Positions 1-1,821 of a stretch of 1,821 bases of DNA are shown here, piece by piece. How positions within the stretch are numbered: position 1 is the stretch's first letter; each line of letters begins with the position of its first letter. The stretch is from assembly GCF_003334315.1 (NCBI RefSeq), contig NZ_QOWR01000112.1. One strand, given 5' to 3'. The translations under genes were made by a program, and so were the position numbers. The notes beneath the pieces were generated by a model. That model did no database searches. It was given only the letters and a program-made list of their open reading frames with translations, and was not told the origin of the DNA. The DNA is from Escherichia coli (GTDB lineage Bacteria > Pseudomonadota > Gammaproteobacteria > Enterobacterales > Enterobacteriaceae).

Positions 1-75
1 GGTCGTTAGCTCAGTTGGTAGAGCAGTTGACTTTTAATCAATTGGTCGCAGGTTCGAATCCTGCACGACCCACCA
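1..75 (+). tRNA. lysV: tRNA-Lys (anticodon UUU), missing its first nucleotide at the window edge; ends in encoded CCA at 73-75
   Basis: Sequence matches the E. coli tRNA-Lys(UUU) from nucleotide 2 onward as I recall it. Anticodon TTT is at 33-35 and the T-arm GCAGG-TTCGAAT-CCTGC at 48-64. The lysV assignment (rather than a lysT-operon copy) rests only on the convergent xapR-like gene downstream, i.e. synteny inference. Confidence 0.93.
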
Positions 76-118
76 ATGTAAAAAAGCGCCCTAAAGGCGC
101 TTTTTTGCTATCTGCGAT
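58..118 (+). repeat. Direct repeat copy 1 (61 bp): tRNA-Lys 3' end (T-loop to CCA) plus terminator hairpin and trailer
   Basis: 58-118 is identical over 61 bp to 214-274 (ATCCTGCACGACCCACCAATGTAAAAAAGCGCCCTAAAGGCGCTTTTTTGCTATCTGCGAT), compared by eye. Copy 1 is the genuine tRNA 3' end. Confidence 0.9.
80..106. terminator. Rho-independent terminator for the tRNA transcript; symmetric, so potentially bidirectional
   Basis: A-tract 80-85, stem GCGCC 86-90, loop CTAAA 91-95, stem GGCGC 96-100, T-tract 101-106. It starts 5 nt after the tRNA CCA. Confidence 0.8.
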
Positions 119-213
119 ACTCAAAGATTCGAACCTGCAGCAGGTTTGAGTTGAGCGCAGCGAAACAACGGAGCCGCTCGCGGCGACGGCCCGAAGGGCG
201 AGCGAAGCGAGTC

Positions 214-274
214 ATCCTGCACGACCCACCAATGTAAAAAAGCGCCCTAAAGGCGCTTTTTTGCTATCTGCGAT
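214..274 (+). repeat. Direct repeat copy 2 (61 bp): orphan tRNA-Lys 3'-end fragment (18 nt, ATCCTGCACGACCCACCA) plus second copy of the terminator hairpin
   Basis: Identical to 58-118. Only the last 18 nt of the tRNA are present, so this is not a functional tRNA gene. The repeat period is 156 bp. Confidence 0.9.
236..262. terminator. Second copy of the bidirectional rho-independent terminator; likely also terminates the convergent xapR transcript
   Basis: Same A-tract / GCGCC / CTAAA / GGCGC / T-tract hairpin as 80-106. It lies 78 bp beyond the xapR stop codon (340-342) on the minus strand and is flanked by A/T runs on both sides. Confidence 0.7.
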
Positions 275-339: not shown

Positions 340-1224
340 CTACTGTGTCAATGCAGCCAACAGCTTAACCATCGCGGGCGTCACCTGCTGTGTTTCATAA
401 ACAATATATAAATCTGCAGGGATGCGCTGTTTGAGCGGACGGAAAATGACACCTGGCCAGTTCATTTGTGCGTAGCTGTCCGCTATCAATGTGATACCAA
501 TGCCCATACTGACCATAGCGAGTACCGTTTGCGGTTCATTAACTTCGCGAATAACAACCGGTGAAAATCCCACCTGCTGGCAAACTCGCTGCAAAAAATC
601 CCAGTCAGTGTAAACGGGCGGCATTGTAACAAAATACTCGTCACGTAGCGCTTCCAGCGGGACGGTGGAAAATGATGAGAGATGATGCTCTTCAGGCATC
701 GCCACCAGAAACGCCGATTCATGCAACCGTAAGCTGGTAAAACCAGTCGGTGGTTCTGTCGCCATTCGCCAGATCCCGGCATCAAGTTCGCGGCGTTCCA
801 GCAAGGCCATTTGCATCGCGGGCATCTTTTCGCGAAAAAGAACGTCAACGTTAGGATTTTCCCTGAGGAATCGCCGCATAACCGGGCGCATCCGTCCCCA
901 CATTGCCGTTCCCACTACGCCGAGTTCAATCCGCCCTGCTTCTCCCCGACCTATTTGTTCAATCCGAGCCAATACATTATTAGCATTCACCAGCAATCGA
1001 CGCGATTCTTCCATCAAGATTTTGCCCGCGTGTGTCAGTACGACGCTGCGCGAATGGCGAATAAAAAGCTGCGTGCCGAGTTGATTTTCCAGCTCTTTAA
1101 TATGAATGCTGAGCGGAGGCTGAGACATATTTAAACGCGCTGCTGCGCGGCCAAAATGCAACTCTTCCGCTACGGCAAGAAAATAACGGAGCAACTTAAG
1201 ATCTGTTCTGTATACGCGTTCCAT
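340..1224 (-). CDS. xapR: LysR-family transcriptional regulator (294 aa), most likely the xanthosine operon regulator XapR
   Basis: The ORF-track frame is 340-1239 (299 aa). The N-terminal region (LKLLRYFLAVAEELHFGRAAARLNMSQPPLSIHIKELENQLGTQLF) is a typical LysR-type winged-HTH and the remainder a LysR substrate-binding domain. I place the start at the second ATG (1222-1224, MERVYRTDL...) because GGAG (complement of 1234-1237) sits 9 nt upstream of it, while the first ATG at 1237-1239 has no Shine-Dalgarno. The xapR call rests on recalled sequence and on position next to lysV; it was not verified by search. Confidence 0.8.
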   Translation of the reverse strand: MERVYRTDLKLLRYFLAVAEELHFGRAAARLNMSQPPLSIHIKELENQLGTQLFIRHSRSVVLTHAGKILMEESRRLLVNANNVLARIEQIGRGEAGRIELGVVGTAMWGRMRPVMRRFLRENPNVDVLFREKMPAMQMALLERRELDAGIWRMATEPPTGFTSLRLHESAFLVAMPEEHHLSSFSTVPLEALRDEYFVTMPPVYTDWDFLQRVCQQVGFSPVVIREVNEPQTVLAMVSMGIGITLIADSYAQMNWPGVIFRPLKQRIPADLYIVYETQQVTPAMVKLLAALTQ

Positions 1225-1253
1225 AATTAAGTGCTCCATATAATAAATACATC

Positions 1254-1296
1254 GTATTAAATTATCATGGCATAAAGTATTTCACCACCAGATATC
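1254..1296 (-). promoter_or_regulatory. Candidate sigma70 promoter for the regulator gene (weak, speculative)
   Basis: On the minus strand a -10-like GATAAT (complement of 1261-1266) lies about 37 nt upstream of the ATG at 1224, in an AT-rich interval. The best -35 candidates 16-18 bp upstream (GTGGTG/GGTGGT/TGGTGG) are poor. Picked by eye, not scored. Confidence 0.2.
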
Positions 1297-1368
1297 CGAC
1301 ATACATAAACACAATGGATAATATACCCGGTAATACATTTGGTACAGGAATAGGCAAGCGCACGATTG

Positions 1369-1391
1369 GGTAATGACTCCAACTTATTGAT
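1369..1391. repeat. IS1 terminal inverted repeat (insB-proximal end, IRR)
   Basis: About 23 bp, GGTAATGACTCCAACTTATTGAT, matching the IS1 right terminal inverted repeat as I recall it. The insB stop codon (complement of 1384-1386) lies inside it, as in canonical IS1. Confidence 0.85.
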
Positions 1392-1821
1392 AGTGTTTTA
1401 TGTTCAGATAATGCCCGATGACTTTGTCATGCAGCTCCACCGATTTTGAGAACGACAGCGACTTCCGTCCCAGCCGTGCCAGGTGCTGCCTCAGATTCAG
1501 GTTATGCCGCTCAATTCGCTGCGTATATCGCTTGCTGATTACGTGCAGCTTTCCCTTCAGGCGGGATTCATACAGCGGCCAGCCATCCGTCATCCATATC
1601 ACCACGTCAAAGGGTGACAGCAGGCTCATAAGACGCCCCAGCGTCGCCATAGTGCGTTCACCGAATACGTGCGCAACAACCGTCTTCCGGAGCCTGTCAT
1701 ACGCGTAAAACAGCCAGCGCTGGCGCGATTTAGCCCCGACGTATCCCCACTGTTCGTCCATTTCCGCGCAGACGATGACGTCACTGCCCGGCTGTATGCG
1801 CGAGGTTACCGACTGCGGCCT
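1384..1821 (-). CDS. insB: IS1 transposase InsB reading frame, 3' portion; the N-terminal part and the insA frameshift region lie beyond the window
   Basis: The ORF-track frame 1384-1761 ([16 protein letters not shown]...[13 protein letters not shown]) matches the C-terminal ~125 aa of IS1 InsB. The complement of 1762-1821 matches IS1 sequence immediately upstream of the MDEQ codon, so I extend the frame to the window edge. One residue (YDRLRKT versus recalled YDSLRKT) suggests an IS1 variant. Confidence 0.9.

Follow-up and report, generated by a model that had tools for sequence, protein, structure and literature searches.

The arginine-rich open frame of 28 codons downstream of the Escherichia coli tRNA-Lys gene lysV is in all likelihood a non-coding by-product of a tRNA-linked repeat (TLR), a structured module of ~125 nt between two lysV trailers. 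This view was obtained by comparing the sequence of a 1,821-nt stretch of DNA, hereafter called the window, with that of homologous loci. The frame lies in a known element; it is already known and not new. The original prediction had described an ORF from TTG to TAA with an AGG 6 nt before the start, and had considered it probably non-coding. The ORF and its peptide were found as described in the ORF listing, and the AGG is located at 142-144. The non-coding verdict was supported, too, in that the frame is not maintained and has no synonymous bias, and RNA pairing explains the variation. Yet the prediction had overlooked that its "spacer" is itself a named, catalogued element and that E. coli strains differ in whether they have the whole 156-bp unit. 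The features of the region are compiled in Table 1.

Table 1. Features of the window (positions count from its first base)
Feature	Position	Strand	Basis
tRNA-Lys(UUU) gene lysV, first base cut off by the window edge; CCA at 73-75	1..75	+	Rfam tRNA 71.1 bits, truncated 5' end
61-nt direct repeat, copy 1: 3'-terminal 18 nt of tRNA-Lys, the terminator and the next 12 nt	58..118	+	repeat search, 100% identity, spacing 156
First intrinsic terminator, AAAAAAGCGCC-CTAAA-GGCGCTTTTTT, symmetric A6/T6	80..106	.	inverted repeat
RtT / TLR, Lys type	106..231	+	Rfam RF00391 46.7 bits (gathering 45), E = 1.9e-7
Antisense ORF, 35 aa, ATG start, Arg-rich like the sense frame; control for frames on both strands	108..215	-	
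Helix P_a, T-arm 5' half and complement	129-138/140-149	+	
Helix P_b	150-166	+	
28-codon TTG...TAA frame, judged non-coding	151..237	+	ORF listing; peptide (M/L)SAAKQRSRSRRRPEGRAKRVILHDPPM
Helix P_c	169-188	+	
Helix P_d	189-199	+	
Helix P_e	200-210	+	
tRNA-Lys 3' fragment	214-231	+	
61-nt direct repeat, copy 2: orphan tRNA-Lys 3' end 214-231 and second terminator 236-262	214..274	+	
xapR, LysR-type activator, convergent with the tRNA operon	340..1224	-	annotation of identical sequence in locus L001
IS1 copy, cut by the window end, inside the small DUF1427 gene adjoining xapR	1369..1821	-	InsB ORF 1384-1761

The lysV locus and its tRNA-linked repeat

The window is a segment of the E. coli chromosome and begins at the end of an operon, valU-valX-valY-lysV. 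A 340-nt stretch was identical in many complete E. coli genomes, where it comes after gltX and three tRNA-Val genes; in NZ_CP025913.1 the identical region is annotated as a tRNA-Lys preceded by three tRNA-Val genes. ARAGORN reported no tRNA in the window because the 5' truncation deprives lysV of its first base, and the tRNA identity of 1-75 was settled by Rfam instead. In complete genomes the opposite strand downstream of the valU operon carries xapR, a DUF1427 gene, xapB and xapA. By the ORF listing, the xapR ORF extends over 340-1239, i.e. by five codons (MEHLI, window 1225-1239) upstream of the annotated MERVYRTD start. The end of the IS1 element begins at 1369, and the insertion point falls within the DUF1427 CDS of L001. 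In other E. coli the interrupted gene, which encodes 52 aa, separates xapR from xapB (window 1240-1368 plus 1369-1821). The identical IS1/DUF1427 junction was not seen among the top database matches; IS1 near the same gene was matched each time in two separate pieces.

From the 3' end of lysV onwards the window carries a perfect direct repeat of 61 nt (58-118 = 214-274). It starts with the last 18 nt of lysV, so that 214-231 are identical to 58-75 (ATCCTGCACGACCCACCA), and the identity runs on through the terminator. The frame runs into this orphan tRNA fragment, as the original prediction had stated, and its TAA at 235-237 falls just past the CCA of the tRNA-Lys copy. The twin terminators 80-106 and 236-262 flank the TLR. 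Both were missed by a simple terminator scan, because their A/T extensions consume the T tail, and were located by the repeat finder and a fold; the hairpin of the second one forms in the MFE fold. The lysV terminator is symmetric (A6-stem-loop-stem-T6), and its second copy, 78 nt past the convergent xapR stop, may terminate xapR as well.

The literature calls the RtT family tRNA-linked repeats and counts 22 of them at ten K-12 loci (PMC8144298). By the definition of Rudd (1999), a TLR is placed in a tRNA or rRNA operon straight after the stable-RNA gene and on its strand, and its last 18-19 nt repeat the 3' end of this gene exactly (PMC8144298). The element of the window is situated directly downstream and on the same strand of lysV, the last gene of the valU operon, and its bases 214-231 are the 3' end of this gene. 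The RF00391 match spans model positions 1-130. Its score is borderline compared with the 133-137 bits of the tyrT copies, because the outer helix of the family has been lost here; the K-12 copy scored 47.3 bits with the same model. NCBI PGAP annotates an ncRNA "RtT sRNA" on exactly the same bases in many genomes, while the spot is unannotated in the curated K-12 record. Model R1, a covariance model that we built from the family alignment A1, had its sole match in the window at 105-236 with 98.6 bits. Near-identical Lys-type TLR copies are located both inside the lysT operon and behind it, upstream of nadA; the lysQ-distal copy of K-12 is near-identical, too. The Arg-rich frame lies wholly within the RtT / TLR region and the trailer behind it, the TLR itself being placed between two identical lysV trailers, each with the 18-nt tRNA-Lys 3' end and an intrinsic terminator.

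The copy number of the element varies. The exact 156-bp unit (window 58-213), which consists of the tRNA 3' end, the terminator and the TLR, was present in 0, 1 or 2 copies at lysV-xapR among E. coli genomes. One locus (L214) equals the window minus 119-274 and has no unit, another one (L215) has two units and three terminators. The TLR together with the xapR flank was matched in one piece by about 35% of genomes, and the unit-less lysV-xapR form made up about 40% of evenly sampled rows. This polymorphism is consistent with unequal recombination between the 61-nt repeats. With its outer helix lost and the unit absent from many strains, the lysV-distal TLR copy is dispensable and partly decayed. 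As a side observation, Klebsiella sp. BIGb0407 (L081 241-1700) and Pantoea sp. IMH (L107 1321-2510) carry 3-6 tandem Lys-type TLR units, many of them spaced about 156 nt, and the Klebsiella locus has a tandem duplication of the entire Val-Val-(Val)-Lys operon.

At full length the valU transcript measures about 438 nt and has its end at the terminator behind lysV; in Northern blots the terminator probe was assigned to this transcript (PMC4176162). RNase P removes the lysV terminator 2-3 nt after CCA, and the terminators of lysV and lysQ are identical (PMC4176162). A sigma-70-like site was looked for in 1-420 on both strands and none was found. Because the valU transcript ends at the first terminator and no promoter-like site is at hand, the ORF would be transcribed only by read-through. 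The rrn TLRs between twin terminators are reportedly made in this manner (PMC8144298). We infer that transcription of the window TLR would take place only when RNA polymerase passes the first lysV terminator. Such an RNA would extend to the second terminator and contain a lysV-like CCA-AUG processing site. Trimming to a discrete RtT-like RNA may follow, in the way described for the tyrT and rrn members.

Comparative tests of the open frame

The original prediction had allowed for a chance origin of the frame from CGN-rich DNA, and this was borne out by 2000 dinucleotide-preserving shuffles of 75-280, of which 76% contained at least one ORF of at least 28 aa. The window has three such ORFs in 75-280 compared with a shuffle mean of 1.19 (P = 0.077), and antisense ORFs of 35 and 33 aa overlap the sense frame. 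Arg and Lys account for 9/28 residues in the sense frame and for 8/29 in one antisense frame. The frame is rich in Arg because the CG-rich TLR helices are read with CG at codon positions 1 and 2 (CGN = Arg).

Homologues were collected with two patterns. One genome per species was scanned with the 16-nt core ACGRCCCGAAGGGYGA, which yielded at least 120 loci, of which about three quarters were chance matches in GC-rich genomes; about 30 gammaproteobacterial loci among the matches listed were usable. These Tyr-type, Lys-type and other TLRs originated from Escherichia, Citrobacter, Enterobacter, Klebsiella, Superficieibacter, Pantoea, Acerihabitans, Zophobihabitans, Marinobacterium, Amphritea, Photobacterium and Salinicola. 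A scan of metagenomes with a pattern specific to the sub-family of the window gave 82 loci that condensed to 58 distinct copies, i.e. alignment A2.

In A2 the position of the start codon was occupied by CCG in 26 copies, TCG in 24, TTG in 6 and TCT in 2. Frame-shifting indels were present in 6 of the 58 copies (-2 nt in four, +5 nt in two), in-frame stops within the 13 codons before CCC in five. The N-terminal half of the translated frame was highly variable. In 43 distinct ungapped segments 12/16 sites were variable at the first, 12/16 at the second and 14/16 at the third codon position. The pooled Nei-Gojobori pN/pS was 0.70 in the ORF frame and 0.60-1.29 in the other five frames (1.29 and 0.83 in the other sense frames; 1.01, 0.60 and 0.81 in the antisense frames). 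It is the antisense frame with 0.60 whose third positions coincide with those of the ORF frame; thus the mild depression of pN/pS is a property of the sites and not a strand-specific code. Frame maintenance and synonymous bias in homologues, which the original prediction had proposed as a test, accordingly spoke against coding. Purifying selection at the protein level, a criterion for dual-function sRNAs, was not seen, the codon positions being equally variable. A synonymous bias in P_c between E. coli on the one hand and Citrobacter and E. cloacae on the other (4/5 changes at third positions) had been a candidate for such selection and was dismissed, as it was gone in the 58 variants; its origin was two covarying pairs in which third positions of CGN/AGY codons are paired with each other.

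In the wider family the second hairpin varied in length by 3, 4, 6, 7 or 8 nt. Because some of these changes are not multiples of 3, the Lys-type copies of Klebsiella and Acerihabitans read the tRNA fragment in another phase. Many copies had GGG-TGA straight after Pro-Glu-Gly, and in one Enterobacter copy stops flanked QRPEG on both sides. In the closest relatives the frame was usually open from some start codon to just past CCA, a result that is uninformative as the sample is in part fixed by the search pattern. The frame corresponds to about 2521404-2521490 on the + strand of K-12. The ribosome-profiling supplement of Stringer et al. lists no ORF at K-12 25214xx, which is a weak argument as repeats map poorly. 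Neither tpr nor this locus is mentioned in the papers on small proteins that were consulted.

The tyrT-tyrV operon, the place from which RtT was first described, carries in K-12 rttR with tpr (b1229, MRSFDQGSTRAPARERCRRQRPEGRSAQR) inside. Altman et al. are said to have described tpr in 1981 as an ORF for a "protamine-like protein" in the first tyrV-distal repeat. The resemblance to this tyrT-distal frame, to which the original prediction had pointed, is real: the window element is an RtT homologue and has RPEGR in the same phase as K-12 tpr. In cmscan alignments the conserved core reads CGG CCC GAA GGG CGA in the window frame and CGA CCC GAA GGG CGA in tpr. BLASTP of the window peptide against Tpr showed 9/15 identities with E = 0.001 for the pair. 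This match arises because the core shares its phase in homologous repeat DNA. Thus, the peptides are alike because the DNA repeats are homologous and not by protein conservation. The ATG of tpr (GGAUGAG) aligns with AGAUUCG here, the homologous codon being ATT at 127-129, and the tpr stop (C UGA GUA AUC C) corresponds to CGA GUC AUC C in the window. Indels shift the local phase between the two frames. Among 13 distinct Tyr-type copies an in-frame ATG was present only in the K-12 tpr copy, 11 were devoid of any start codon, and 7 had a stop directly after PEG. Thus, tpr itself is confined to a single repeat copy of K-12 and lacks conservation in other genera. NCBIfam has no family model for either the window peptide or Tpr.

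Could the frame nevertheless encode a small basic protamine-like peptide, a paralogue of Tpr that is produced by valU read-through from the TTG or from the ATT at 127? The phase and the RPEGR in common with annotated tpr, with the BLASTP match that goes with them, would be expected from such a gene, and so would a frame that is open in most close relatives and an AGG 6 nt 5' of the TTG; some Enterobacter-type copies even have an in-frame ATG 63-66 nt before CCC. On the other hand, TTG is kept in 6/58 copies only, frameshifts and stops occur, and third-position or synonymous bias does not exceed that of other frames. Both the ATG and the stop of tpr are lost in the window, and tpr is not conserved either (ATG in 1/13, stop after PEG in 7/13). 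Furthermore, the AGG and the TTG are paired as parts of conserved helices, the unit lies behind an efficient terminator without a promoter-like site and is absent from many E. coli, and the peptide matches no protein family in NCBIfam. We therefore regard a Tpr-like peptide as very improbable.

The antisense ORF was considered as the real small gene of the region. It reads from 215 to 108 and starts with ATG. With 35 aa it exceeds the sense frame in length, it is rich in Arg (8/29) and remains open in most variants, and none of the other five frames has a lower pN/pS. Yet the value of 0.60 is no coding signal and mirrors the 0.70 of the sense frame through the shared third positions. The ATG arises as the complementary strand of CAT within GTCATCC, a conserved junction; the ORF lies downstream of the symmetric terminator 236-262 that faces xapR, there is no promoter-like site on either strand, and the same indels shift it as the sense frame. 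Its chances of being a gene are negligible.

Base pairing of the TLR

The internal helices of RF00391 and the core ACGRCCCGAAGGGYGA are present in the window, where P_a, P_b, P_c, P_d and P_e can all be formed. The outer helix, in which the 5' end pairs with the tRNA-derived 3' end, is lost: its pairs are flagged as non-canonical by cmscan, and the strand CTCAAAGAT does not pair with ATCCTGCACG. The 5' flank of the TLR in the window is a degenerate outer-helix strand. Other Lys- and Tyr-type copies have retained the outer helix, with compensatory changes, and there it varies in accordance with the tRNA type.

In the 58 copies of A2 the five-helix structure left 95.6% of cells paired compared with 27-46% when the partners were slid. 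Helix P_b contains the base pair switches UA32/CG22, CG52/UA6 and AU46/GC8 with almost no unpaired cells, and double changes in P_b and P_c were seen across the sub-family. The six-helix structure of the family alignment A1 had 88.6% pairing and 18 double-change pairs, while 8-11 were counted after sliding. A search of the collected loci with model R1 retrieved 62 copies. Their CM-based alignment displayed compensatory changes in 29/35 pairs and 90.7% paired cells, figures that are in part raised by the fitting of this alignment to the model. The "start" TTG of the frame belongs to the 5' strand of the covarying hairpin P_b, and the AGG and the TTG are both base-paired in the MFE fold. The data suggest that selection acts on base pairing rather than on the frame. 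The TTG is a piece of P_b, and the remainder of the frame passes through P_c, P_d, P_e and the tRNA-derived 3' end. An additional R-Y pair (GCCC/GGGC) of the CCCGAAGGG flanks was rejected as unsupported, A·C combinations being common.

The anatomy of the TLR is that of a divided T arm. The T-arm 5' half GCAGGTTYGA (140-149) pairs with its complement 129-138 and is followed by four conserved hairpins, the T-arm 3' half, the acceptor strand and CCA (214-231); joining 149 to 214 restores the T arm of tRNA-Lys. The same anatomy was observed in family loci L003, L054, L057, L081, L107, L080 and others. Facing GA/GA dinucleotides occur in three hairpins of the window (153-154/162-163, 171-172/185-186 and 200-201/209-210). 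In Citrobacter sp. FP75 and C. werkmanii (L077 1033-1175, minus strand, and L031 382-498) the tyrT locus opens with a fused tRNA-Tyr-like gene, in which a tRNA-Tyr-like 5' part (anticodon GCA) is joined at AAGGTTCGA to the TLR core, with the acceptor 3' strand lost. We did not accept this fusion as proof of an insertion into an intact tRNA, since a deletion between two AAGGTTCGA repeats is simpler; probably it is a deletion between the T-arm repeats of the tRNA gene and of the next TLR. Weak matches of the TLR model in Salinicola (L041 5813-5907 and 8128-8219) and Photobacterium (L122 2571-2716) contain the core, but a tRNA 3' end is not evident. Perhaps they represent remote relatives of the insert that reside outside tRNA operons.

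It is conceivable, if rather unlikely, that the TLR of the window is a neutral DNA relic without an RNA role, left by unequal recombination or by a decayed tRNA-gene duplication and regenerated or deleted through the 61-nt repeats. The 0, 1 or 2 exact 156-bp units, the lost outer helix with an Rfam score of 47 vs 133-137 bits for the tyrT copies, and the fact that most transcripts end before the TLR are in line with a relic. In addition, the literature reports no known function for tRNA TLRs (PMC8144298). However, drift would not predict internal hairpins with compensatory changes and 95.6% pairing in 58 variants of the sub-family. Moreover, the core pattern retrieved copies with the 3' ends of Tyr, Lys and 5S-rRNA genes from several orders of Gammaproteobacteria, and the covariance model found additional copies without the exact core. 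With respect to the frame a relic agrees with the explanation that we prefer, the non-coding by-product of a structured TLR: in both cases the frame is non-coding.

Meaning of the element and comparison with known systems

Conservation was seen for the RNA helices beneath the frames, but not for the frames as such, that of tpr included. This bears on annotation: the reasoning that listed tpr in K-12 would add "protamine-like" ORFs at every TLR. A coding frame would have added a second peptide to a family of small basic ones concealed in tRNA trailers, which is unlikely now. The role of TLR RNAs is a matter of the element rather than of the Arg-rich frame.

In the TLR architecture a strand complementary to the tRNA's own 3' end precedes the split T loop. 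The arrangement is maintained by compensatory changes for tRNA-Tyr and tRNA-Lys, and the core precedes the 3' end of 5S rRNA as well. A TLR looks like a tRNA 3' half with its T loop split (GGTTCGA / ATCC) by a conserved four-hairpin module. Tentatively, and with probability rather against it, such a module could be a functional RNA or a spreader that targets T loops. A functional RNA might, e.g., imitate the acceptor/T minihelix as a decoy or as a guide for processing. Under both possibilities the Arg-rich frame would only be carried along as a passenger.

Tpr and the window frame are alike in the phase over the core (…RRQRPEGR… vs …RRRPEGR…) and in being Arg-rich through the CGN codons of GC-rich helices. 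The window frame differs from tpr in that it ends inside the tRNA trailer.

One of the closest known systems is the RtT RNA / rttR of the tyrT-tyrV operon, reportedly described by Bosl and Kersten in 1991; the original functional claim and phenotype of rtT have been retracted (PMC8144298). It has homologous sequence, helices and the core ACGRCCCGAAGGGYGA in common with the window copy. Both are located directly after a tRNA gene of the same strand and end in its 3' end including CCA, and in both the number of units is variable. Yet the window copy is of the Lys type instead of the Tyr type, scores 47 vs 133-137 bits, has lost the outer helix, and its second hairpin is shortened to GC-GAA-GC. 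Furthermore, each unit of the window has a full intrinsic terminator, so that the TLR lies behind a terminator and not within the transcript as at tyrT.

RrA/RrB/RrF, TLR-family sRNAs between the twin terminators T1 and T2 of rrnA, rrnB and rrnD, have a 3' end that repeats that of the upstream stable RNA like the window TLR, and this repeat has been proposed to guide processing (PMC8144298). They are located after 5S rRNA, unlike the window TLR, and use GGA loops to bind Hfq and CsrA; the predicted CsrA-binding score/probability was <0.01 for all 19 TLRs of tRNA operons (PMC8144298). Finally, 3'ETS-leuZ is comparable to the candidate lysV-trailer RNA as a trailer RNA of a tRNA operon and a by-product of tRNA processing. 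It has no sequence relation to the window TLR, however, is located before the terminator and not after it, and has a demonstrated function as a sponge.
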